A stretch of 64,000 nucleotides of DNA from an uncultured Verrucomicrobiae bacterium (lineage in GTDB: Bacteria; Verrucomicrobiota; Verrucomicrobiia; Chthoniobacterales; JAFAMB01). The DNA lies in the NCBI GenBank assembly GCA_963837955.1, contig CAWIPH010000002.1, positions 10,966 to 74,965 on the forward strand, read 5' to 3'. Within the stretch, counting starts at the first letter, position 1. Each line of letters opens with the position of its first letter. The notes under the pieces were generated by a model. That model made no database searches. It was not told the DNA's origin and saw only the letters and a list, made by a program, of their open reading frames with translations. Shown here in pieces: positions 10,618 to 38,715 of the stretch. The position numbers and the translations under genes were made by a program.

Positions 10618-10673
10618 GGTGACCTCCAAGGGCGTAACATATGGACACGGTTCCCGGGGTTAAAACCCCGGCG

Positions 10674-10845
10674 GGGAGGGATCGCAGCCTGTCCGACATA
10701 GCTTTTGATGCATCACGCTCAACGACCGTGCGCTTTTGCGACGTCGGATCCTCGCGATCCGCGGCGCACGAGGATCCGACGTCGCGCTCGAGCATTCTGC
10801 AGCAGGCATCCAAAGGGCTATGTCGGACAGGCTGTGCGCCCTCCC
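10674..10845. repeat. 172-bp nested palindromic intergenic element
   Basis: The outer 29-bp inverted repeat is GGGAGGGATCGCAGCCTGTCCGACATAGC (10674-10702) against GCTATGTCGGACAGGCTGTGCGCCCTCCC (10817-10845). The inner perfect 17-bp inverted repeat is GCGACGTCGGATCCTCG (10738-10754) against CGAGGATCCGACGTCGC (10769-10785). The CCTGTCCGACATAGC core recurs at about 12238. Confidence 0.7.
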
Positions 10846-10961
10846 GGCGAACGGCGTGACGCGATTTTAGTTGCCAAATCGGTGAGCGTAGTCATCGAAT
10901 TAAGCGCGAACCATGGAATCTGTGGTTTTGAATTCTGGCGGGATCCGGAAAAAGAAACAGC

Positions 10962-12405: not shown

Positions 12406-12415
12406 GTCAGGTCAG

Positions 12416-12482
12416 ATCTATTAAAGAATTAATTGACGTATTTGCTGATCGCGCCTAGCTATCTATTAATTCTTTAATAGAT
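12416..12482. promoter_or_regulatory. AT-rich operator-like inverted repeats abutting the blaI-like start codon
   Basis: ATCTATTAAAGAATTAAT (12416-12433) is the exact reverse complement of ATTAATTCTTTAATAGAT (12465-12482). The proximal site is itself a palindrome (ATCTATTAA-TTCT-TTAATAGAT) and ends 1 nt before the ATG at 12483. Confidence 0.5.
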
Positions 12483-12866
12483 ATGGCCCGCAAACCATCA
12501 CCAACTTTGACAGACGCTGAGTTGCGTCCCATGGAAATACTTTGGGAGCGAGGACCCTCGACAGTCGCCGAGGTGGTCAACGCGTTACCTGAGCTACTGG
12601 GACTGAGCTATAGCACAGTACTCACTACGCTCCGGATTTTGGAACAGAAAGGGTATGTCGAACATACCAAAGAGGGACAGGCTTATGTTTATCACCCGAT
12701 CGTCGACCGCAATCAGGCTCGCAAGAAGGTCCTCAAACATATTCTAAATCGTTTCTTTGACGACTCACCGGAACTTCTGGTCATGAAGCTTTTGGAATCG
12801 GAGCATATCGATGCCGAGGACTTGCAACGGATTCAACGGCTGATCAATCAAGGAGAGAAACTGTGA
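12483..12866 (+). CDS. BlaI/MecI/CopY-family transcriptional repressor
   Basis: LTDAELRPMEILWERGPSTVAEVVNAL...SYSTVLTTLRILEQKGYVEHTKEGQAYVYHPIV is the winged-helix Penicillinase_R pattern. The protein is 127 aa. Confidence 0.9.
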   Translation: MARKPSPTLTDAELRPMEILWERGPSTVAEVVNALPELLGLSYSTVLTTLRILEQKGYVEHTKEGQAYVYHPIVDRNQARKKVLKHILNRFFDDSPELLVMKLLESEHIDAEDLQRIQRLINQGEKL

Positions 12867-12896: not shown

Positions 12897-14822
12897 TTGC
12901 GGATGATAGCCGAGCATTTGGTCAATGGTTTGATTCTGTCGGCAGCAATCTTCCTTGGGTCAATATTGTTATTCCGTTTTCTCCTCCGCGAACAGCGTTG
13001 GAGCGCTGCCACCCGCCACCGAGTCTTGCTTCTGACCTTTTTTGTTCTAGCTAGCACTCCGATCCTAACGGCGCTGAAACCAACGCGACCGAGTGACAGT
13101 CTGCCTAGAACTGGGCAGCTCTTGGCGGAACAACCTTGGCCCACAGAAATTCAAATGTTTTCTGGCGTGGCTGTACCATCGGAAGCCAATCGCTCTACGC
13201 CCCAGCATCATTGGCGACAGCCCGGCTTTTGGCTGCGCTGGATCGACTGGCCCGTAGCTCTGGCCGTGCTATGGACAATGCTCGTCTTGGTTTATTTTTA
13301 TCGTTTGGCGGCGGCTATCAATAGGCTTCGACTTCTTCATCGCAGCGCACGACCTCTGACGGTTTCGACGGACCTCACGTTCCGCCGAAAAATAACGATC
13401 GCCGAATCCTCGCGTATTTCTTCTCCGGTAGCGGTGGGTCTATGGTCGCCAAAGGTACTACTGCCATCAAATTTTCAGTCGGGTTTTTCTGTGGAGGATC
13501 GCGCGAACGTGTTGCGCCATGAAATCGCGCATCTTGAGCGGTTTGATGACTGGTCGAATCTGGCGCAGCAACTCTTCATTGCCTTATTTCCGATAAACCC
13601 CTTTCTCTGGATCCTACGCAAGCGATTGCAACTTCAGGAAGAGATCGCTTGTGACGACTGGGCATTAGCGGGCGCTGATCAGCCGAAAAACTATGCGAGT
13701 CTGCTCACTCGCTTGGCTGCCAGTTATCACGGAGGGCCGTCGCTGGTGTCCGGGGTGAGCCGAGGCGGCAAACACCTTTACCGACGGGTGTCGCGCATTT
13801 TGGATAAGAACTGTAACCGGAGTCTCAAACCATCTTGGCGAAGCACTCTGTTGGCTGGGCTTGGTTTGATTTTCTCGTTGGCTGGAGGCCTGTTTTGGTT
13901 GCCGGCGGTGGTATGGACGTCGCCCGCTCAAGCAGCAGAGGTTCAAAACACGCCCGCGAACCAAGATAGCAAACCCCAGAAGCTAAGTACCGAAGTCATT
14001 ACGTTGCTAAAGAATTCAGCGTTGAACGACCCGGATGCAGGAGTTCGCCGAGAGGCGGTGAACGCTTTGGTCAGAGCGGCTGGCGACGAGGCTACCACTG
14101 CGCTTCTGGCTCTTTTGAATGAGAGCAAGGATGATCAGGTCAAGCTGCTCATCTTACGCCGGCTCGATCGTGAACGGGTAGGCGAAGCCAGAGTCAAGGA
14201 GAAGCTGAACGAGCTGGCAGCACATGAACAGTCGTTGCCGATCAGAATAGCAGCGCTAAGCGCGTTGGCCCGCACTATCGACGAGAGTGCGGTCGAGAAG
14301 TTCATTTCGATCTATCGATCCGCCTCCGAACCGCCGATTAAAGAGGCCTGCTTGTACGGGTTAACCGGAACACCTTCCAACGTAGCGAAGGATTTTCTGA
14401 TTTCGGTTGCCAAAGATGATCCGGATCCGGTGATGCGACGGGTGGCGCTGCGCGCAGTTTCTGGTTCAACGGGAAAACGGATTATGATCCGGACCAAGGG
14501 GGCCATGATAGATGGTGGGGAGTTAGAAGATTTAGGCTATTTTTCGCTTGGCCAAGTTCCCGAGGGCTTAGACGAAATGGTTTTACAACCGAGAGCCGAT
14601 CTCCTCGATTCGCCCGAAGGCCTGGCCGATCTCGAGAAAAAGAGAGCGGACGTCTTAGCGCAACGAGCAGAACAGCTGAAACAGCGCATCCAGGCGATTC
14701 CGTTACCGAAGATTCCTGGTGAGGAGTCCGAATTGGAGCCTCCGAGCGCCCCGACTCCGCCCGAATTGCCGTCCAACAAGTCTACTGGCGGGCCTTCTCC
14801 AAAGCCTTCTCCAAATCGGTAG
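12897..14822 (+). CDS. BlaR1-like M56 membrane metalloprotease with C-terminal HEAT-like repeats and a Pro-rich tail
   Basis: The N-terminal TM segments are followed by the HExxH motif in LRHEIAHLERFDDW. The C-terminal half has HEAT/PBS-lyase-like repeats (DPDAGVRREAVNALVRAAGDEATTALLALL..., DDPDPVMRRVALRAV). No penicillin-binding sensor domain was recognised. Confidence 0.85.
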   Translation: MRMIAEHLVNGLILSAAIFLGSILLFRFLLREQRWSAATRHRVLLLTFFVLASTPILTALKPTRPSDSLPRTGQLLAEQPWPTEIQMFSGVAVPSEANRSTPQHHWRQPGFWLRWIDWPVALAVLWTMLVLVYFYRLAAAINRLRLLHRSARPLTVSTDLTFRRKITIAESSRISSPVAVGLWSPKVLLPSNFQSGFSVEDRANVLRHEIAHLERFDDWSNLAQQLFIALFPINPFLWILRKRLQLQEEIACDDWALAGADQPKNYASLLTRLAASYHGGPSLVSGVSRGGKHLYRRVSRILDKNCNRSLKPSWRSTLLAGLGLIFSLAGGLFWLPAVVWTSPAQAAEVQNTPANQDSKPQKLSTEVITLLKNSALNDPDAGVRREAVNALVRAAGDEATTALLALLNESKDDQVKLLILRRLDRERVGEARVKEKLNELAAHEQSLPIRIAALSALARTIDESAVEKFISIYRSASEPPIKEACLYGLTGTPSNVAKDFLISVAKDDPDPVMRRVALRAVSGSTGKRIMIRTKGAMIDGGELEDLGYFSLGQVPEGLDEMVLQPRADLLDSPEGLADLEKKRADVLAQRAEQLKQRIQAIPLPKIPGEESELEPPSAPTPPELPSNKSTGGPSPKPSPNR

Positions 14823-14830
14823 GGATGCCG

Positions 14831-14977
14831 ACGTAGCCTGATCCTCCTGGCTCAGAGAGCGTGTCAGTGATCAGTGATTGGTGAGAAGTGAATAGTGGAA
14901 CTTATCGGCAAAATCTTTTGCTAATCACTAATCACCAATCACTCACCCGCACCCTGAGGCTGGAGCATCAGGCTACT
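14831..14977. repeat. MITE-like palindromic repeat element (copy 1)
   Basis: Imperfect terminal inverted repeats are GACGTAGCCTGATCCTCCTGGCTCAGAG (left) and CCTGAGGCTGGAGCATCAGGCTAC (right). The inside holds GTGATTG-type heptamers facing CACTAAT/CACCAAT heptamers. The element ends 1 nt from the stop codon of the Na/Pi gene. Confidence 0.75.
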
Positions 14978-14978
14978 T

Positions 14979-16682
14979 TCAAACGGGCAGAGCCTCGGTG
15001 GAAGCTAACTTTGCCTCGTGATTCTCCTCAACTTCAGTCGAGCTCAAAAACTTCTGATCGATCTCCGAAAAATCGCCCCGTGGCTGATCTGACTTATTCG
15101 CATTTCGAACCAAAGCATAAGCGATCGACGTCAACTGGCTGTTGATCCGCCGCAGACTATCAAGCAAATCGAGAAAGTTAGAGTTCGTAGACTGGATTGG
15201 TTTCTCCAGGCGCTGCTTACGGAAGACTCGCAATTGATTGTTAATTTCCTCTTTTTCTCGGATTAATTGTACCGCGAAGTGCTGGTCCCGTGACATAACG
15301 AGCATGGCGACTTTCGCGATGCGTTTCAGCGTGCGCGAGTAAAGAGTCTCCAGCTCTCGGCGATCTTCCGGCGAAAGTTCATGCGTCGATCGAGCTTCGC
15401 GTAATGCGGCTTCAGAAAGGTCCCGCCGGATAAGCGTGCCGACGGTGCACAGATCTTGGGCGTAGTCCAAAACAATGAGCTTCCAGTCAATATCCTCTTC
15501 GCTCAGATTCTCGTCGCTCACCTGGCTGAGATAGTCTTTAAGACCTTCCTCTGTCTGCTCGACCCGCCTTTGCTGTTCTTCGATCTTGCTTACCAGATGA
15601 ACATTCTTTGCTGAAAAGATTGCCCGGACCGTGCGTAGCATCAGCTTTAATTGATCCATTAACCGCAGTTCCTCGCGAGCGGCATGGTTGAGGGCCAACG
15701 ACGGCGACTGCAGCAGAAGCGGATCAAGATAGCTGTCGGTCTCGCCGGAGTCGTCGGAATTTGGGGATTCAACCAGGAAAACGATAATTCGGTAGATCAG
15801 CGAGAGCACAGGTAAAGCTGCGAGGCCGAGCACCAGATTGAACAACGTATTCAAATTCGCAGCCTGTCGATCGATCTCGCCCGGAAGAAGGTGGATGATG
15901 AAAGTAAACAAACGGGAACTGGCCACGAGCAAGACGGCTGCTCCGCAGCCCTTAATCAGAAGGCTGCCGATCGCGAGCCGGCGGCCCTCGATGCTGCCCC
16001 AGCCCGCAATCATCATGGTGAGCGTGATTCCGAGATTTGCGCCCAGCACCCATGGCACCATCGTCGCACCTGGAAGCAATCCGGATTGGGCTAGTCCAAT
16101 GCCCAATCCGATGGAAGCCGTCGAACTTTGAAGGATAACGGTCAGCAGTGCTGTCGCCAGAAACACTAGCAGGGGATAGTGTTCAGCGACGCCGAAGACC
16201 AGCTTCAGATCTGGATTGGCAGCGGCGACGCTTCCCGCTTTTCCGATCATTTCCATCGCTAAGAAAATCAGACCGATCCCCAGCAGCATTTGGCCGACTC
16301 CGCGAAAAATCGCGCGGTTCGAAAATAGGAATCCGATTCCTCCGGCGACAAGAAAGACACCGGCGTAGTCCTGTAAGCGAAGCGCCAGTAACTGGACCGA
16401 AACCGTGATACCGACGTTTGCTCCTAAAACGATGGCTAACATGCGCTCAGCCGTTAGCGTCGTTTCATTCAACATCTGCACCGACAACATCGCTATGGCG
16501 CTCGACGATGGCGCGACGCAGCCAGCCACTGCACCGGCGAAGAACGCTTGATAACGATTCTTTGTCATCTGTTGCAGCCAATCGACTAGTCGATTGCCTA
16601 ACAGACGATCCAGGCCTTTGCGTACGTAGCGCATGCCCAGAAGTACAAGGATGACACCAGTCGCGATATTCAGGAACGGCAT
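14979..16682 (-). CDS. Na+/phosphate cotransporter family protein (NptA/YjbB-like) with PhoU-like C-terminal region
   Basis: The N-terminus MPFLNIATGVILVLLGMRYVRKGLDRLLGNRL...SSSAIAMLSV and a repeated membrane half (TVILQSSTASIGLGIGLA) match Na_Pi_cotrans repeats. The soluble helical C-terminal ~220 aa resembles a PhoU-like region. Confidence 0.85.
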   Translation of the reverse strand: MPFLNIATGVILVLLGMRYVRKGLDRLLGNRLVDWLQQMTKNRYQAFFAGAVAGCVAPSSSAIAMLSVQMLNETTLTAERMLAIVLGANVGITVSVQLLALRLQDYAGVFLVAGGIGFLFSNRAIFRGVGQMLLGIGLIFLAMEMIGKAGSVAAANPDLKLVFGVAEHYPLLVFLATALLTVILQSSTASIGLGIGLAQSGLLPGATMVPWVLGANLGITLTMMIAGWGSIEGRRLAIGSLLIKGCGAAVLLVASSRLFTFIIHLLPGEIDRQAANLNTLFNLVLGLAALPVLSLIYRIIVFLVESPNSDDSGETDSYLDPLLLQSPSLALNHAAREELRLMDQLKLMLRTVRAIFSAKNVHLVSKIEEQQRRVEQTEEGLKDYLSQVSDENLSEEDIDWKLIVLDYAQDLCTVGTLIRRDLSEAALREARSTHELSPEDRRELETLYSRTLKRIAKVAMLVMSRDQHFAVQLIREKEEINNQLRVFRKQRLEKPIQSTNSNFLDLLDSLRRINSQLTSIAYALVRNANKSDQPRGDFSEIDQKFLSSTEVEENHEAKLASTEALPV

Positions 16683-16837
16683 ATTGTTTTCAATCTCGCT
16701 AAGGGTTTCTCACACTACATATTGGCCTCTCTATCGGCGTTATGCTGCTCATACCGTGCAGCCACATACCTATTGTAGATTCAGCCGGATTAACAACCAA
16801 CGGCCACCCCGATTAAAAAAATTTAATGAAAGAAGCG

Positions 16838-17009
16838 GACGTAGCCTGATCCTCCTGGCTCAGAGGTACATCGTGTGAGAGGTGAGAAGTGATTGGTGAA
16901 TAGTGGATGCATATCGGCAAGTCCTCGGTAGAAATCCCCATCACCCTTTCACTAATCACTAATCACCAATCACGCGCTGTACCCCTGAGCCAGGAGGATC
17001 AGGCTACGT
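16838..17009. repeat. MITE-like palindromic repeat element (copy 2, near-perfect TIRs)
   Basis: GACGTAGCCTGATCCTCCTGGCTCAGAGG (16838-16866) faces CCCTGAGCCAGGAGGATCAGGCTACGT (16983-17009). The internal GTGAGAAGTGATTGGTGAATAGTGG faces CACTAATCACTAATCACCAATCAC. It has the same orientation as copy 1. Confidence 0.8.
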
Positions 17010-17033
17010 TGCCCAGCACGCCGATACGGCACA

Positions 17034-19730
17034 CTATATCCACGATCGGTATCGTCGAAGAAACCAGGCCTTGACCACCTGAGTGAGTAAACAATAAGCA
17101 ACGAGGATTCCGCTCAACCAACAAAAGTAAATCAGGGGTAACCGGACCAGACCAATCGCGGATCCGATGCTCGTGAAAGGCAACACAGCGCCGGCAAACA
17201 TGACGATGATGGTTGTAGCAAGTAGAGGAGGACAGGCCCAACTCTGCAAGAACGGAATCTTGCGAGTTCGGATCATGTGCACGATCAGGGTCTGAGAGAG
17301 CAAGCCCTCGACGAACCAACCGGATTGGAAAAAAGCTCTTTGCTCACCCGTCCCCACACCGAAAAGCCACCATAGTAGAGCAAACGTCGCGAGATCGAAA
17401 ATCGAACTGATTGGGCCAAAAACCATCATGAACCGCGCGATTCCTTGAGACTCCCAACGACGCGGTCGCGCCAGATCTTCCGGGTCAACGGGATCAAAAG
17501 GGATGGTTGTTTGAGAAAGATCGTATAAAAGATTCTGGACTAACAATTGGAGCGGTAACATTGGCAAAAAAGATAAGAAGGCGCTGGAACCGAGAATCGT
17601 CAGAACGTTTCCGAAATTCGAGCTAGCGGCCATCTTTATATACTTGACGATATTGGCCGAATTTCGCCTTCCCTCGACCACGACGTTCACCAGACCGGTG
17701 AGACTCTTTTCTAGCATGATGATGTCCGCCGATTCTTTCGCGACATCGACTGCTGTGTCCACGGAGATCCCAACATCCGCTTCCCGGAGCGCAGCCGCGT
17801 CGTTAATTCCATCGCCCAAAAAGCCGACGGTGTTTCCTGCTGCTTTCAAAGCCGAGATCACGCGCGACTTCTGCAAAGGCGTCAGCTTGGCGAAAAGCGT
17901 GGTTTGAGTAACAGCTCTTTTCAGCTCCTCCTCAGTCAGTGATTCGACTTCGCTCCCGAGCAGAACATTATTCACTTCGAGATCAACCCATTTGCAAATC
18001 CGGCGAGCGACTAATTCGCTGTCTCCCGTCAAAATTTTCACCTCCACACCTTCTCGCCGCAGTGCGGCTAGCGCTTCGGTAGCTGACTCCTTTGGTGGAT
18101 CCAAGAAAGCGATAAAACCAACTAACACGAGGTCGCGTTCGTCGTTTGCCAGATACTTATAGCTAGTCTGATCGACCGAAATGTCTTTGTAGGCGACCGC
18201 CAGTACGCGAAGACCATCCATGCTCAACTCGTCCCGCGAGAATAAAATCGATTCCCGGAGTTTGGGCGACAACGGCACAATTTTGCCATCAAGTTTTGCT
18301 GAGCTGCAGACTGCAATCACTTCTTCGACAGCGCCCTTACAAATCAGTTCGTGCTGCTGGCGGTCCTTTTCAAGAATGACGGACATCCGCCTGCGCTCGA
18401 AGTCGAAAGGGAGTTCGTCGACCTTGCGATAGCTCTCGCTGATGTGGAGCGCTTCGTGAAGTTCGCCATGCTCCAGCACAGCGGCGTCGAGCAGGTTCTT
18501 CAACCCGGTCTGAAAATAACTGTTCAGGTAAGCGTATTGCAGAACATCGTCATCTCCATTACCCAGAATATCGAGATGATGTTCCAGGATGATTCGGTCA
18601 ATCGTGAGCGTACCCGTCTTGTCGGTGCAAAGAACGTTCATCGCTCCCAGGTTTTCGATCGAGTTAAGCCGCTTAACGATTACTTTGTTTCGTACCATCG
18701 ACACGGCGCCGCGGGTAAGGTTGGCCGCAATGATGACGGGCAGCATTTCCGGGGTTAACCCGACCGCTACCGACAAAGCGAAAAGAAGGGAGGAGGCCCA
18801 GTCTCCCTTGGTCAAGCCGTTTAGCAGGAGTACGACGGGGAGGACCGCGAACATGAACCGGATGAATAACCAGCTAATGCTGTTGATGCCCTGATCAAAG
18901 CTGGTGAAAGAGCGCTGGCTTCTCGTTCGCTCGACGAACGACGCAAAAAGCGTGTCACCGCCGGTGGCTATAACGAGAGCCGTAGCTGTCCCACTGACAA
19001 CATTGGTGCCCATGAAACAGAGATTCGCCAGATCGGAAGGTTGCAGAATCTCTTTGGCGGAAGTCCGTCTTGCTCTCGTTGTCGAAGGCTGCAGTGTATC
19101 AAATTTTTCGGTGGGCAGCGCTTCACCGCTTAAAACCGATTCACTCACAAATAGATCGCGGGTTGTGAGCAGTCGGACGTCACCCGGGATCATGTCGCCG
19201 GCGCGGAGATAAATCACATCGCCCGGGACCACTTCTCGCAGCGGGATCTCTTGTTCTTGGCTTTTTCCGGAGGCAATTGTTCGACTGACCGTTACGGTTG
19301 TACTTACCAGGGCGCGCAAACGCGCCACGGTGCGAGTCGAACGGAATTCTTGTACGAATCGGAGCAACACACTGATGGTGACCATCAGGAGAATCAGCGA
19401 GCCGGCTGCGTTATCTCTCAACAAAAAGGAAACGACGCTCAAGACGCTGAGAAGAATAACAAAGGGGTTTCCGAAGTTACGGAGAAACTGCGAGAAGATC
19501 GACGCGGTTCGATCGTAGGTTACGGAATTATATCCGTATTCCGCTAAGCGGCTCTTTGCTTCCGTTTCGCTTAGACCATGCTCGGAAGTACGGAGGGATC
19601 GAAAAAGCTCTTCCGGTAGCGAATAAGCTGCGTCGAGGGTTTGGGGACGAATTCTTTTGGAAGCCGGAATGATACCCGGTTTGCTCGCAGCAATTTTCGG
19701 GAGTTTGCCCGGTGTCGAAAAGAGGCTCAC
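17034..19730 (-). CDS. mgtA: Magnesium-translocating P-type ATPase
   Basis: The 898-aa ORF has the phosphorylation motif CTDKTGTLT, the hinge GDGINDAAALREADVGISV, and TGES-like LSGEALP. Length and topology fit the MgtA/MgtB class. A 4-bp overlap joins it to the upstream kinase gene. Confidence 0.9.
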   Translation of the reverse strand: MSLFSTPGKLPKIAASKPGIIPASKRIRPQTLDAAYSLPEELFRSLRTSEHGLSETEAKSRLAEYGYNSVTYDRTASIFSQFLRNFGNPFVILLSVLSVVSFLLRDNAAGSLILLMVTISVLLRFVQEFRSTRTVARLRALVSTTVTVSRTIASGKSQEQEIPLREVVPGDVIYLRAGDMIPGDVRLLTTRDLFVSESVLSGEALPTEKFDTLQPSTTRARRTSAKEILQPSDLANLCFMGTNVVSGTATALVIATGGDTLFASFVERTRSQRSFTSFDQGINSISWLFIRFMFAVLPVVLLLNGLTKGDWASSLLFALSVAVGLTPEMLPVIIAANLTRGAVSMVRNKVIVKRLNSIENLGAMNVLCTDKTGTLTIDRIILEHHLDILGNGDDDVLQYAYLNSYFQTGLKNLLDAAVLEHGELHEALHISESYRKVDELPFDFERRRMSVILEKDRQQHELICKGAVEEVIAVCSSAKLDGKIVPLSPKLRESILFSRDELSMDGLRVLAVAYKDISVDQTSYKYLANDERDLVLVGFIAFLDPPKESATEALAALRREGVEVKILTGDSELVARRICKWVDLEVNNVLLGSEVESLTEEELKRAVTQTTLFAKLTPLQKSRVISALKAAGNTVGFLGDGINDAAALREADVGISVDTAVDVAKESADIIMLEKSLTGLVNVVVEGRRNSANIVKYIKMAASSNFGNVLTILGSSAFLSFLPMLPLQLLVQNLLYDLSQTTIPFDPVDPEDLARPRRWESQGIARFMMVFGPISSIFDLATFALLWWLFGVGTGEQRAFFQSGWFVEGLLSQTLIVHMIRTRKIPFLQSWACPPLLATTIIVMFAGAVLPFTSIGSAIGLVRLPLIYFCWLSGILVAYCLLTQVVKAWFLRRYRSWI

Positions 19731-23296: not shown

Positions 23297-23481
23297 GACG
23301 TAGCTTGATCCTCCTGGCTCAGGGGGGCGCAGAGTGTGATTGGTGGGGCCTATCGGCAAATCTTCGGCAAAAATCCCCCCACCTCCCTCTCACTAATCAC
23401 TAATTTAGTAAGCGGTCGGCGTACCTGGCGTATCCGATCTCCGGCATCGGCTCCCCGCTTACTAATCTAATCACTGATCAC
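23297..23481. repeat. Truncated/rearranged copy of the MITE-like element
   Basis: The left TIR GACGTAGCTTGATCCTCCTGGCTCAGGGG is present, with GTGATTGG and CACTAATCACTAAT modules. No matching right TIR is found. It contains an extra hairpin, TTAGTAAGCGG...CCGCTTACTAA. Confidence 0.65.
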
Positions 23482-23532: not shown

Positions 23533-24390
23533 CTACAGCCGTTCCAAATAGACTCGGTACGGCGAATCGGGTAGGCTGGAAACCAGCTCCCTGAATTGTG
23601 CTCGATTCAAGAAGCCCATTTCCAGGGCGACCTGTTCGATGCAGCCAATCTTCAATCCCTGCCGCTTTTCGATGGTTGCAATGTAATTGCCGGCCTCCAG
23701 CAGACTCTCGTGCGTTCCGGTATCCAACCAGGCTACACCTTGTTCGAGAATTTTGACGGTCAACTCGCCTCCGAACAGATATGCACGCGCCAGATCGGTG
23801 ATCTCGAGCTCGCCCCGATCAGAAGGTTCCAAATTTTCAGCAATTTCGACGCAATGCTGATCGAACAAGTACAGACCAGCTACCGCATAGTTGCTCTTCG
23901 GATGCTTCGGTTTTTCCTGCAGTCCCGTGGCTTGCCCGAACCTATCAAATTCAACCACGCCATAGCGTTCGGGATCGCTGACCGGATAGGCGAATATTGC
24001 GCCACCCTTGTCGATTCGTAGCGCTTCGCGCAAGAAGTCCAGGTTCCCGTGAAAGATGTTATCACCCAGGATCAGCGCAATCCCTTGATCACCAATAAAA
24101 TCGCTCCCGACGATAAACGCATGTGCAATACCGGCAGGTTTCGCCTGTTCAGCATAGGCAATGTTTAGTCCAAGCTTTGATCCATCTCCGAACAGCTCTC
24201 GAAACCTCGGCAAATCTCGTGGCGTCGAGATGAGAAGGATGTCGCGGATGCCCGCTTGCATCAATGTGGCCAAAGGATAGAAGACCAACGGTTTATCGTA
24301 AACGGGAAGAAGCTGTTTGCAGACGACGTCGGTGAGAGGATGGAGCCGCGTACCGGCGCCCCCCGCTAGGACGATCCCTTTAGTAATCAT
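23533..24390 (-). CDS. rfbA: Glucose-1-phosphate thymidylyltransferase
   Basis: MITKGIVLAGGAGTRLHPLTDVVCKQLLPVYDKPLVFYPLATLMQAGIRDILLISTP is the canonical RmlA/RfbA N-terminus. The protein is 285 aa. Confidence 0.9.
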   Translation of the reverse strand: MITKGIVLAGGAGTRLHPLTDVVCKQLLPVYDKPLVFYPLATLMQAGIRDILLISTPRDLPRFRELFGDGSKLGLNIAYAEQAKPAGIAHAFIVGSDFIGDQGIALILGDNIFHGNLDFLREALRIDKGGAIFAYPVSDPERYGVVEFDRFGQATGLQEKPKHPKSNYAVAGLYLFDQHCVEIAENLEPSDRGELEITDLARAYLFGGELTVKILEQGVAWLDTGTHESLLEAGNYIATIEKRQGLKIGCIEQVALEMGFLNRAQFRELVSSLPDSPYRVYLERL

Positions 24391-24404
24391 AGTTGGACCG
24401 AAGA

Positions 24405-24782
24405 GAAACTCACGCCAAGCGGCGAAAGAATCTCACGCAAAGACCCGGAGAATCTCACGCAAAGACGCAAAGACGCAAAGTTTTGAAAGGGAGTCCGGGC
24501 CGTCGAAAGCCACAGTGATTTGTGAGAAGTGATTGGTGATGGGGTGAAAATCCTCGCAAAGGTAGCGTAGCCTGATGCTCCGCCTCAGGAGATTGGCGCG
24601 CCTTGGATTCCTGAGGCGGAGCATCAGGCTACTCTGGCTTCGTTCCGCCCATAAAACGGCATCGACCGCATTGTCCGCTCAAACTTTGCGTCTTTGCGTC
24701 TTTGCGTGAGATTCGAATAAGGACCGGCGGGAGCCGATCCCTACCGGTCTTGGCGTGAGATTCTTCTTTGCGTGAGATCTCA
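24405..24782. repeat. ~380-bp nested palindrome built from 8-mer, 7-mer and TIR-like modules
   Basis: A perfect 31-bp inverted repeat pairs GAATCTCACGCAAAGACGCAAAGACGCAAAG (24450-24480) with CTTTGCGTCTTTGCGTCTTTGCGTGAGATTC (24684-24714). The central perfect hairpin pairs GTAGCCTGATGCTCCGCCTCAGGA (24567-24590) with TCCTGAGGCGGAGCATCAGGCTAC (24609-24632). GTGATTTGTGAGAAGTGATTGGTGA lies in between, and additional CTCACGC copies lie at both outer edges. Confidence 0.85.
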
Positions 24783-25520: not shown

Positions 25521-25600
25521 TAACGCCGGGAACGCCGGGAACGCCGGGAACGCCGTTATCGCCGGGAACGCGAAAACCGTGAGAAGTGATTGGTAAGACG
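25519..25600. repeat. 9-bp tandem array (GGGAACGCC) plus heptamer module
   Basis: GGGAACGCC occurs 3 times (25528-25554), followed by GTTATCGCC and GGGAACGCG and then GTGAGAAGTGATTGGTAAG. Confidence 0.85.
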
Positions 25601-29940: not shown

Positions 29941-30136
29941 GCCCATACCTGTGGCGGGGGGAAATAGCAAATAGCAGATAGCAGGGGGGAGAGAACGCCG
30001 GGAGCGCACGGGAACGCCGGGAACGCCGGGAACGCCAAAGCCAAACACCAAACGCCAAACGCCAAACGCCGCGATATCGGCAGCTAATCGGCCGTTTAAC
30101 CTGTATTCCTTTGCGCCTTTGCGTCTTTGCGTGAGG
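29941..30136. repeat. Intergenic spacer composed almost entirely of concatenated short tandem-repeat modules
   Basis: AAATAGC/AGATAGC occurs 3 times (29962-29984) and G(G/A)GAACGCC-type 9-mers occur 5 times (29991-30036). CCAAAC(G/A) occurs 4 times (30041-30068) and CTTTGCG(N) 8-mers occur 3 times (30108-30131). The array ends in GTGAGG directly at the stop codon of the next gene. Confidence 0.9.
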
Positions 30137-36411: not shown

Positions 36412-37612
36412 AATCAAGGCCATAATCTTCCGGCACTCTTGCGAAGGGAGACGCAATTTGAGCCGGGTCACCGAGATGGTGTATTGGCCGGTGCAGAACA
36501 TCGTTGTCTGGGGGTTTTTCACAATTTATCTTACCCGGGACAACCACCTGCAGCCGGGAATAGTTAGTTTTCTCTTAGGTGCGGCCATTCTGTGGGGGAT
36601 GTTCTATGCATTCCAGCGTGATCTGGCGGCGGGCTTCCTCGAAGAACTCTGGTCTCGAAACCTCATCAACTTATTCTCTACGCCGCTGAGCATCTCCGAA
36701 TATTTGACCGGCCTCATCATTGTCAATCTGGTCAGAGCCATGGTGGGAGTTCTGGCAGCGGGCCTAACTGCGTGGCTCTGCTTCGGCTATGAAATCTCCT
36801 CGAAACTGTTAGCAGTTATTCCCTTTATGTTGAGTTTGACTCTCTTCGCGCTCGCTGTCGGTGTGATAATTACCGGTCTGATTGTCAGGTATACCACCAA
36901 GATCCAGACGCTGGCCTGGAGCTTTGCTGGCTTACTGATGCCGTTCTCGTGCGTATTCTATCCTTTTAGCTCTCTTCCCAAATGTTTGCGTCCGGTCGCC
37001 TGGGCTCTTCCCACTACTCATGCTTTCGAAGGGATGAGGCAGGCAATCGCCGGAGGAGGCTTTGCGCTGCCGCATTTCGAGTGGGGGATTATGCTAAATG
37101 CGTTCTATCTGGTGTTGGCTGTCCTGGTGTTTCGCCGGATGTTTGAATCTGCACGTGCCCGAGGTCTGCTTAGTAAAGCTAGAGTAGGGAACGTTGGGAA
37201 CGCCGGGAACGCACGGGAACGCCGACAACGCCGACAACGCCGACAACGCCGACAACGCCGACAACGCCGACAACGCCGAGAACGCCGAGAACGCCGAGAA
37301 CGCACGGGAACGCCGGCTTGTCCGACGACCGTGTCCGACGAAGCTCCTCCGCTACATCGGCGACGTTCCAAGGATCAGCGAAGTCGGAAGCCTGCCGGAG
37401 TTTCAAACGACGGAGCGAAGTTGGAGAGCGCATTTTTCGGTAGTGCCAGAAATGTGTTGCCAATCGCGAGCTCCTCTGTAAAGAATCGCCTCTGCTGCGC
37501 AACCCTCCGCGCGCCGGCAATCGGTTTCTCGGGGAATCGGCTATGGACCAGTCCATCATATTGCACAGCCATGTGCCAAAGACGGCGGGCACCAGCGTTT
37601 CGGCGCATCTAG
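36398..37612 (+). CDS. ABC-2 type transporter permease; the conserved part ends at about 37180 and the ORF then reads through a 9-bp repeat array
   Basis: About 260 aa are polytopic membrane protein (...WALPTTHAFEGMRQAI...LVLAVLVFRRMFESARARGLLSKA). This is followed by GNVGNAGNARE(RRQ)x6(RRE)x3 and ~95 aa of Arg-rich, non-protein-like sequence. That tail overlaps the next gene start at 37543. Confidence 0.7.
   Translation: MKLNRIKAIIFRHSCEGRRNLSRVTEMVYWPVQNIVVWGFFTIYLTRDNHLQPGIVSFLLGAAILWGMFYAFQRDLAAGFLEELWSRNLINLFSTPLSISEYLTGLIIVNLVRAMVGVLAAGLTAWLCFGYEISSKLLAVIPFMLSLTLFALAVGVIITGLIVRYTTKIQTLAWSFAGLLMPFSCVFYPFSSLPKCLRPVAWALPTTHAFEGMRQAIAGGGFALPHFEWGIMLNAFYLVLAVLVFRRMFESARARGLLSKARVGNVGNAGNARERRQRRQRRQRRQRRQRRQRRERRERRERTGTPACPTTVSDEAPPLHRRRSKDQRSRKPAGVSNDGAKLESAFFGSARNVLPIASSSVKNRLCCATLRAPAIGFSGNRLWTSPSYCTAMCQRRRAPAFRRI
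37187..37314. repeat. 9-bp tandem repeat array
   Basis: The order is GGGAACGTT, GGGAACGCC, GGGAACGCAC, GGGAACGCC, GACAACGCC x6 (37224-37277), GAGAACGCC x2, GAGAACGCAC, GGGAACGCC. It belongs to the same unit family as 25528-25572 and 29991-30036. Confidence 0.95.
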
Positions 37613-38387: not shown

Positions 38388-38397
38388 TCCGAGGATA

Positions 38398-38715
38398 AAA
38401 TCTCACGCAAAGTCGCAAAGGCGCAAAGAATGGGAGGCGGAATCCAGAATGTTTGGCACAGAAGTAAACGGAGATAACGGTTCGGCTGAGCCGTCGGGCG
38501 GCTCCACTCGAAGCCAATCTATCTCCCCGGTCACCTTCAATTCAAAATTCGTCTTTGCGCGAGGCTTTAACGGATTTCCGTACTGCGCGTTCCCTCGCAC
38601 TTCTCACCAATCACCTCTCACCAATCACATTGGCTTCGACCGGAGCTCAGCCGCGCCTTTGCGTCTTTGCGTGAGATTTTCTAAGTCCGTTCTCCTTTGC
38701 GCCTTTGCGTGAGGC
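38398..38715. repeat. Modular inverted-repeat element filling the intergenic spacer
   Basis: AAATCTCACGCAAAGTCGCAAAGGCGCAAAG (38398-38428) faces CCTTTGCGTCTTTGCGTGAGATTT (38655-38678) and CCTTTGCGCCTTTGCGTGAGGC (38694-38715). The heptamer module CACTTCTCACCAATCACCTCTCACCAATCAC lies at 38598-38628. Confidence 0.85.

Follow-up and report, generated by a model that had tools for sequence, protein, structure and literature searches.

The 64-kb stretch of DNA analysed here (the window; element coordinates refer to the whole stretch) carries two palindromic elements, E1 and E2, on either side of a gene for a Na/Pi cotransporter (NaPi). These elements are very likely REPINs, i.e., inverted doublets of repetitive extragenic palindromic (REP) units, of the REP/REPIN-RAYT kind (RAYT, REP-associated tyrosine transposase), and belong to a REP family of soil Chthoniobacterales (Verrucomicrobiota). 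The assignment is carried by the anatomy of the REP unit, the architecture and dispersal of the doublets, the association of RAYT genes with REPs, the absence of target-site duplications and the gene context. This kind of system is already known; as far as our searches show, the lineage and the REP sequence are new.

A sequence-only reading of the window had placed elements with ~25-bp inverted ends at 14831-14977 and 16838-17009. Both are real, and their limits were refined to 14833-14976 (E1) and 16841-17007 (E2) because conservation across the family begins at the G of GTAG; the extra AC/GT at the E2 ends is specific to that copy (Table 1). The 23-nt terminus GTAGCCTGATCCTCCTGGCTCAG was matched without mismatch at 14833(+), 16841(+) and 16985-17007(-), with one mismatch at 23300(+) and with three mismatches at 14954-14976(-), and 0.00 matches were expected in shuffles of the window. 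The inverted arms span 52 nt in E1 (81% complementarity) and 71 nt in E2 (83%), and the left end of E1 is complementary to the right end of E2 at 25/25 positions. As had been proposed, each whole element folds into a single long hairpin on either strand, with energies of -70.6 and -74.7 kcal/mol for E1 (z -7.9 and -9.0) and -113.6 and -110.5 kcal/mol for E2 (z -15.7 and -13.7), and both contain GTGAnnn arrays mirrored by nnnTCAC arrays. Their common orientation also holds, the polarity of the heptamers and of the ATCGGCAA centre being identical in the two. Scanning the whole window against Rfam at the gathering threshold gave no match.

Two further copies had been proposed, at 23297-23481 and 24520-24632, and each stood in part. 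In the first (E3), the left REP is good and a clear right REP is lacking. Its interior comprises one heptamer block, a ATCGGCAAA centre and mirrored heptamers broken by an extra hairpin (~23405-23460), and reading by eye suggested a weakly REP-like candidate remnant of the right end, GGAGCGCATCCCGCTAC, ending at ~23536. The second proved to contain a REP doublet of 66 nt (E4), which is nested in an unrelated octamer-repeat palindrome (24404-24780), with a GTGAnnn array (24515-24542) just outside it. Altogether, the window contains seven REP units.

The REP unit is 26 nt long and has the form GTAG + CCTGA-T-[G/C]C-loop-G[C/G]-C-TCAGG. Across 123 distinct units with flanks, the information content, no more than ~0.2 bits upstream, jumped to almost 2 bits at G1 of GTAG, and conservation remained high until about position 26, with G1, T2, A3 and G4 near-invariant; positions 1-15 of this profile were partly constrained by the search pattern, and positions 17-26 were unconstrained. 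The unit folds on itself as a short imperfect palindrome behind the GTAG head, with the structure ....(((((.((....)).))))).. in dot-bracket form. Among 64 distinct units, 91.7% of the cells of this structure were paired, compared with 20-45% when the 3' partner columns were slid. The pair 11-18 was G-C in 41 and C-G in 19 of the 64, a compensatory flip by which we define G-type and C-type units, respectively. In the mixed doublets inspected by eye, including E1, the G-type unit lay 5' of a GCC..CGAT motif and the C-type unit on the other side. GTAG-tagged REPs are by definition imperfect hairpins preceded by a GTAG head; they also form 'HH dimers' (REP pairs with GTAG outward and spacers of 20-100 bp) and have been recorded in Opitutus terrae, a verrucomicrobium (Di Nocera et al. 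2013, PMC3733652).

The family is dispersed well beyond the window. A degenerate terminus pattern returned eight loci among species-representative genomes, all of them in two metagenome-assembled genomes (MAGs) labelled Chthoniobacterales and Verrucomicrobiota, and 101 stretches in JGI metagenomes. With more than 100 loci found by pattern scans, the earlier view of the elements as non-coding, non-autonomous members of a dispersed family was upheld. We extracted 32 distinct inverted doublets with GTAG outward, the commonest length of which was 105-118 nt, versus 144 and 167 nt in the window. Their spacers share a central GCCnAATCGATnGC-like motif, roughly GCC(A)AATCGAT(A/G)GC, which occurs on the plus strand of E1-E3 as ...TATCGGCAAA..., indicating that whole doublets, and not merely their ends, are homologous. 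REP units were also found solo and in head-to-tail arrays with a period of 40-47 nt. No direct duplications were seen flanking the 32 distinct copies, and in several copies the flanks lengthened the palindrome by 4-9 nt. In one heptamer-type doublet (L056 15-225; fetched stretches of related DNA are denoted by L and a number), the left REP is split by a 42-nt insertion, a small hairpin starting GTAGCC, which looks like a nested insertion of a REP into a REP.

Scanning all fetched DNA (about 0.8 Mb of related DNA plus the window) for the Y1 transposase motif (HUH...Y(x)2NP) yielded a single type of gene, in L034 and L115. The L034 protein (192 aa, with the motifs VVMPNHVHVL and YIRDNPKKAGL) matched Pfam Y1_Tnp (2e-9); its best NCBIfam match was 'REP-associated tyrosine transposase' (REP_Tyr_transpos, 70.5 bits), and its best PDB match was E. 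coli TnpA_REP (4ER8). A protein database search showed that many of its homologues are labelled 'REP element-mobilizing transposase RayT' by JGI. A solo REP lies upstream of the L034 gene, and a full doublet plus half a REP begins 8 nt past its stop codon; L115 represents this locus too, with the gene lacking part of its N-terminus (L115 553-1195). Contigs of 78-80% identical orthologues (L117-L120) were fetched by exact protein look-up, independently of the REP pattern, and all four carried three to five REPs of precisely this family upstream in one orientation and one to four inverted ones downstream, with GTAG outward. The chromosomal location of RAYT is therefore conserved, and the gene lies between its own REPs as in a classic 'REPtron'. 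Of the three options in the sequence-only reading, the 'REP/BIME-like' one (BIME, bacterial interspersed mosaic element) was borne out.

The RAYT gene is located beside uvrA in L034 and L118-L120 (the downstream flank differs in L117), and an 88% identical orthologue, P0122, sits between an L034-type response-regulator gene and uvrA. The uvrA-adjacent locus in L034, the P0122 contig and L118-L120 (80-91% identity) fits vertical inheritance. In four other contigs (L023 7627-7788, L016 4080-4241, L083 2869-2984 and L074 2738-2886), the uvrA-adjacent locus is without RAYT: the intact stretch seen at L034 3573-4447 is replaced by 114-160 bp in which the outer REP alone is left, and the flanks are ~95% identical. 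Close relatives thus differ in whether they carry RAYT, the gene being intact, truncated or missing at the uvrA locus. A group II intron-type reverse transcriptase (RVT_1 + GIIM) is encoded at L117 1625-2959, ~600 nt downstream of RAYT and its REP. A different, textbook GTAG REP, GTAGCCCAGCACTTCAGTGCTGGG, with the structure GTAG-CCCAGCAC-TTCA-GTGCTGGG, occurs in two copies in the spacer upstream of NaPi in L009 (9617-10001), the orthologous locus of an 84% identical relative. About 1 kb from it, L009 8538-8813 encodes a 91-aa Y1_Tnp fragment; this second REP type near a Y1_Tnp fragment indicates that at least two REP/RAYT families coexist in these genomes.

If it works as E. coli TnpA_REP and IS200/IS605 insertion sequences do, RAYT (an HUH/Y1 transposase) would recognise the REP hairpin and the GTAG head on single-stranded DNA, and from its single locus it probably disperses the REP family in trans. 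An IS200/IS605-like single-strand mechanism would leave no target-site duplication. Copies survive almost only just past stop codons, between convergent or co-directional genes, and in the subfamily of the window the mirrored, slippage-prone GTGAnnn arrays lengthen the stem through the spacer. We infer that RAYT would mobilise the REP doublets in this manner and that the genome from which the window derives presumably also carries a RAYT.

Several observations weigh against the REPIN assignment. The REP stem is short (5+2 bp) next to those of classical REPs, and the strict pattern gave only three and five matches in the two MAGs. The Y1-motif scan found no RAYT gene in the window, the cognate enzyme being known only from related contigs; its 70.5 bits fall below the 80-bit NCBIfam equivalog cut-off, and its similarity to E. 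coli TnpA_REP is distant (E 6e-5, 25.9 bits). No canonical terminator consisting of a hairpin and a T-tract was detected at E1 or E2. All-against-all megablast of ~115 loci produced 106 candidate indels. Those inspected comprised larger deletions, insertions of other element families and in-frame gaps within genes that probably stem from assembly or from strain deletions, and none had a clean junction for the REP family. No clean pair of filled and empty alleles that would show the exact insertion junction was thus found, and a TA duplication could formally be concealed in G-TA-G...C-TA-C.

The placement of E1 and E2 relative to genes follows that of the family. E1 fills the gap between the convergent BlaR1-like and NaPi genes, starting 10 nt after one stop codon and ending 2 nt before the other, and E2 lies 26 nt past the stop codon of a P-type ATPase gene and ~158 nt upstream of the NaPi start (16682). 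Farther along the minus strand, beyond the ATPase gene, are genes for a histidine kinase, a response regulator and Nramp. The sequence-only reading had correctly remarked that one element ends near the NaPi stop codon (the last position of E1 is 14976/14977 and the first of the stop codon 14979), and this adjacency is a family trait because most doublets are within 0-17 nt of stop codons. When frames without stops over 150 aa or more stood in for genes, 20 doublets had such a frame on both sides, and 14 of these doublets lay in convergent, six in co-directional and none in divergent contexts. The doublets are extragenic, 29/32 having no long open frame that spans them. GTAG REPs show a matching gene-context pattern (Di Nocera et al. 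2013, PMC3733652).

E1 and E2 are probably transcribed as hairpins of 3'-untranslated regions, where they would protect the flanking mRNAs or terminate them. The BlaR1-like and NaPi messages would be served by E1, and E2 would act on the message of the ATPase operon and insulate this operon from the NaPi promoter. No sigma-70-like promoter was detected at E1 or E2. Such a specific RNA role is much less certain than the REP/REPIN identity.

The NaPi locus was compared with orthologous loci, NaPi homologues of 82-88% identity being labelled Chthoniobacterales. The order Rrf2-Nramp-response regulator-histidine kinase-ATPase-NaPi is kept in L010-L013 (85% NaPi identity) and ATPase-NaPi in L014 (72%), and a BlaR1-like sequence lies downstream of NaPi in L011 and L009. 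Alignment of the window with the orthologous DNA is interrupted only across E2 (16827 to 17031) and in the surroundings of E1. At the two equivalent sites, L010-L013 contain unrelated palindromic repeats in place of E1 and E2 (one with GGCTATC heptamers, one of ~350 nt and one member of an octamer family), and both sites are essentially empty in L014. At all orthologous loci, a conserved promoter-proximal block of NaPi (ATTAAATTTTTTTAATC...GTTGTTAATCC) begins directly after the variable segment. Since the equivalent sites hold other repeats or nothing, these spacers appear as repeatedly colonised 'safe havens', and since synteny is kept without the elements, the bracketing of NaPi reflects two independent insertions and not a composite element.

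A rival explanation, in which hairpins with a structural or regulatory role in the host (as terminators, stabilisers of mRNA or sites of protein binding) spread by recombination and are kept by selection with RAYT uninvolved, would account for the very stable folds, the strict placement a few nt from stop codons with 0/20 divergent contexts and the conserved REP hairpin with its compensatory pair, and roles of E. coli REPs in mRNA stability and termination are established (background in PMC3733652). However, this explanation leaves unexplained the bracketing of RAYT by the 26-nt unit in every contig examined, the conserved non-palindromic spacer motif of the doublets, and the unrelated repeats or empty sites at orthologous positions, and we consider it improbable. 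A function acquired after insertion is compatible with the REPIN reading and hence is no true rival to it.

The sequence-only reading had also offered a miniature inverted-repeat transposable element (MITE), which would be a derivative of a DDE insertion sequence (e.g., IS630/Tc1-like) with ~25-bp terminal inverted repeats and insertion at TA in a GTAC target. Long inverted termini, small size, dispersal and lack of coding capacity agree with this, and TA occupies bases 2-3 in every copy and again at the mirror position. However, G1 and the mirror C are about as conserved as TA, and the bases outside are not, so that a strict GTAC target would be needed, and the palindrome-extending flanks are implausible as pre-existing targets. 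A MITE does not account for REP units that occur solo and head-to-tail, and the supposed terminal inverted repeat is a REP unit that carries its own hairpin with a compensatory pair. The sole transposase found bracketed by these ends is Y1/RAYT (five contigs plus the truncated L115), an HUH and not a DDE enzyme, and with no flanking duplications in 32 copies the MITE proposal is very improbable. No parent DDE insertion sequence with matching ends turned up in the ~0.8 Mb covered by the Y1-motif scan, a search not aimed at DDE genes. True MITEs found in these genomes are unlike the present elements (L011 1338-1628).

Least credible is a composite or cassette unit in which the same-orientation elements serve as ends for recombination or transposition, or as attC-like sites, that brought in or can move NaPi: two elements of one family and polarity do bracket a single gene, and the NTP transferase gene likewise lies between two copies, but ATPase-NaPi order is kept in relatives of 72-85% identity that lack the elements, the window alignment breaks only at the elements themselves, the E1 and E2 interiors have diverged (73-80% identity), post-stop-codon placement is the family norm, and inspection of the sequence found no attC core sites (GTTRRRY / RYYYAAC), the ends being GTAGCC...GGCTAC. 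Integron attC and composite-transposon readings were ruled out by these ends and the conserved synteny, and the earlier suggestion that the pair mobilises NaPi was not supported. The NTP transferase gene as cargo between E3 and E4 was likewise ruled out, as L009 keeps the NTP transferase-Rrf2 adjacency.

The long stems of E1 and E2 are not typical of the family. The doublet spacer is generally not self-complementary (median z -0.18, with 3/29 below -2), by which spacer palindromy was ruled out as a family-wide trait, and interior self-complementarity was significant only in E1 (z -4.9), E2 (z -6.2) and L093. The extreme values of E1 and E2 are due to the mirrored heptamer arrays. Their architecture, which reads REP, linker, (GTGAnnn)3-5, centre, (nnnTCAC)3-5, linker, REP, was also found in L003, L050, L084 and L056, and its presence in other genomes indicates a propagating subfamily. 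GTGAnnn arrays of at least three units numbered 27 in 0.82 Mb, versus 0 in a shuffle; 13 of them lay within 120 nt of a REP, eight of these at 25-34 nt from GTAG, and the rest were unattached. At one locus, two GTGATTG-type units were present in L051 and five in L061, a change in copy number that affects one arm only and points to slippage. The GGCTATC heptamers in the ATPase-NaPi spacer (e.g., L010 9225-10001) numbered four in L010 and L012 and three in L011 and L013. The tandem heptamers are behaving like microsatellites.

Other repeats built from short tandem units were observed in the same DNA (Table 1). A second dispersed palindromic family has ends (A)GAATCTCACGCAAAGAC and tandem ACGCAAAG octamers that are mirrored 200-500 nt off by CTTTGCGT...GTGAGATTC; its modules, found in the window and relatives, are themselves mirrored and terminate in CTCACGC. 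The orthologous Rrf2-adjacent spacer is occupied by members whose interiors are unrelated in the window, L009 and L010, and the window copy is the one that hosts E4. Intergenic arrays of the 9-mer GGGAACGCC (up to 14 copies) and of the 7-mers AACGCCA and AAATAGC were also seen, sometimes chained, and in L004 the GGGAACGCC nonamer abuts a REP. A long palindrome at 10671-10848, unrelated to the REP family, has 32-nt arms that are 88% complementary and 114 nt apart, and encloses a perfect-centred palindrome of 24+24 nt at 10738-10785. A true MITE-like element of 268-289 nt from a different family, with long terminal inverted repeats (CAGTGTACCGTCTCACATATAATG...), is polymorphic for presence or absence between contigs with flanks 91-98% identical.

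Intergenic DNA of soil Chthoniobacterales may be a mosaic of mirrored short-tandem-repeat modules nested with REP doublets. It is unlikely, on present evidence, that the GTGAnnn 7-mer, ACGCAAAG 8-mer, GGGAACGCC 9-mer and GGCTATC 7-mer modules form an undescribed class of self-extending palindromic repeats. On that reading, the heptamer-stem variant would amount to more than an embellished REPIN; the modules might be generated on hairpin DNA by RAYT or replication slippage, or they might be arrays to which a nucleoid or regulatory protein binds. If true, either origin could tune the length of the hairpin and hence the 3'-end processing of neighbouring genes. The heptamer arrays and nearby tandem-repeat palindromes suggest a modular repeat 'grammar' that is, to our knowledge, undescribed. 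If anything new is concealed here, it would be in the heptamer-stem variant or the surrounding tandem-repeat mosaic alone.

Compared with known REPIN/RAYT systems (Bertels & Rainey 2011, PMC3116915; Nunvar et al. 2010; PMC3733652), the family has the same short, self-folding, GTAG-headed REP ends, arranged as inverted units with GTAG outward (spacer of ~55-65 nt, ~110 nt in total), the same extragenic location just past stop codons of convergent or co-directional genes without target duplication, and a Y1 transposase gene set between REPs of its own family, beside uvrA in contigs of 78-91% RAYT identity, as vertical inheritance predicts. It differs in its Chthoniobacterales host and new REP sequence, in the T/C mismatch of its short 5+2-bp REP stem, in its oriented G-type/C-type heterodimers, and in the window subfamily, where heptamer arrays make the spacer, which is not normally palindromic, part of an unbroken 144-167-nt stem. 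E. coli REPs and BIMEs likewise have a GTAG head and imperfect palindrome, mosaic clusters with other short motifs and a location in 3'-untranslated regions, and TnpA_REP (4ER8; Messing et al. 2012, PMC3479197) is the best, though distant, match of RAYT among solved structures; however, BIMEs use defined inter-REP motifs (e.g., IHF sites) and not tandem heptamers, and the RAYT described here has an N-terminal extension of ~90 aa. Classical bacterial MITEs (Correia, RUP, Nezha) share small size, dispersal, inverted termini, lack of coding capacity, folding into long hairpins and frequent location in transcribed intergenic DNA, whereas the present elements are without target-site duplications or a known parent insertion sequence, are associated with an HUH/Y1 enzyme and have termini that are autonomous REP hairpins.

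Heptanucleotide tandem repeats in cyanobacteria, the short tandemly repeated repetitive (STRR) sequences, were reportedly described by Mazel et al. in 1990. The present arrays resemble them by description only, as intergenic tandem 7-mers at many loci with strain-variable copy number (L051/L061), and differ in sequence and phylum and in being often mirrored, inside or abutting REP doublets. A literature search found no paper linking Chthoniobacter or Udaeobacter with REPs or heptanucleotide repeats.

These results extend REP/REPIN-RAYT systems, studied mainly in Gammaproteobacteria, to abundant uncultured soil Chthoniobacterales, and give this lineage a defined REP consensus, a doublet architecture and a cognate RAYT locus beside uvrA. 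For annotators, they explain very stable hairpins after stop codons and warn against labelling them as MITEs, small RNAs or cassette boundaries. Only the mirrored heptamer arrays, prone to slippage, and the other tandem-repeat palindromes near them might reward further study.

Table 1. Elements, repeats and genes in the window and in related DNA (positions without an L number are in the window)
Feature	Position	Strand	Description
E1, REP doublet (REPIN)	14833-14976	.	144 nt; GTAG heads outward; from inverted ends and fold
E1 left REP unit	14833-14858	+	C-type, GTAGCCTGATCCTCCTGGCTCAGAGA; from terminus match, unit conservation and hairpin covariation
E1 heptamer array	14867-14894	+	GTGAnnn x4, mirrored by 14922-14942; from array scan
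E1 mirrored heptamer array	14922-14942	+	nnnTCAC x3; from array scan
E1 right REP unit	14951-14976	-	G-type, minus-strand GTAGCCTGATGCTCCAGCCTCAGGGT; from terminus match, doublet set and unit conservation
E2, REP doublet (REPIN)	16841-17007	.	167 nt; both ends C-type; from inverted ends and fold
E2 left REP unit	16841-16866	+	C-type; from terminus match and unit conservation
E2 heptamer array	16875-16902	+	GTGAnnn x4, mirrored by 16946-16973; from array scan
E2 mirrored heptamer array	16946-16973	+	nnnTCAC x4; from array scan
E2 right REP unit	16982-17007	-	C-type; from terminus match and unit conservation
E3, degenerate copy	23300-23481	.	Orientation of E1/E2; good left REP 23300-23325, no clear right REP
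E4, minimal REP doublet	24567-24632	.	66 nt; both units G-type, 1-nt deletion
BlaR1/M56+HEAT gene	12897-14822	+	Converges on NaPi
Na/Pi cotransporter gene (NaPi)	14979-16682	-	With PhoU domain; stop codon 14979-14981
P-type ATPase gene	17034-19730	-	Stop codon 17034-17036; upstream of NaPi
NTP transferase gene	23533-24390	unspecified	Rrf2 after
Octamer palindromic family	24404-24780; 38397-38713; 30109-30135; L010 11704-12251; L009 15795-15945		
9-mer arrays	25522-25571, 29993-30036, 37187-37316		GGGAACGCC
7-mer array	30031-30070		AACGCCA
7-mer array	29962-29983		AAATAGC
MITE-like element	L011 1338-1628 vs L010 4500, L012 2381, L013 378; L003 1527-1796 vs L055 4888		Presence/absence polymorphism

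Upstream of the BlaR1-like gene, an AT-rich inverted repeat is present at 12410-12488, with 27-nt arms that are 89% complementary and 25 nt apart, and may be a candidate operator of the BlaI/MecI type. An open reading frame of 127 aa (12483-12866) follows directly after this repeat, ahead of the BlaR1-like gene.

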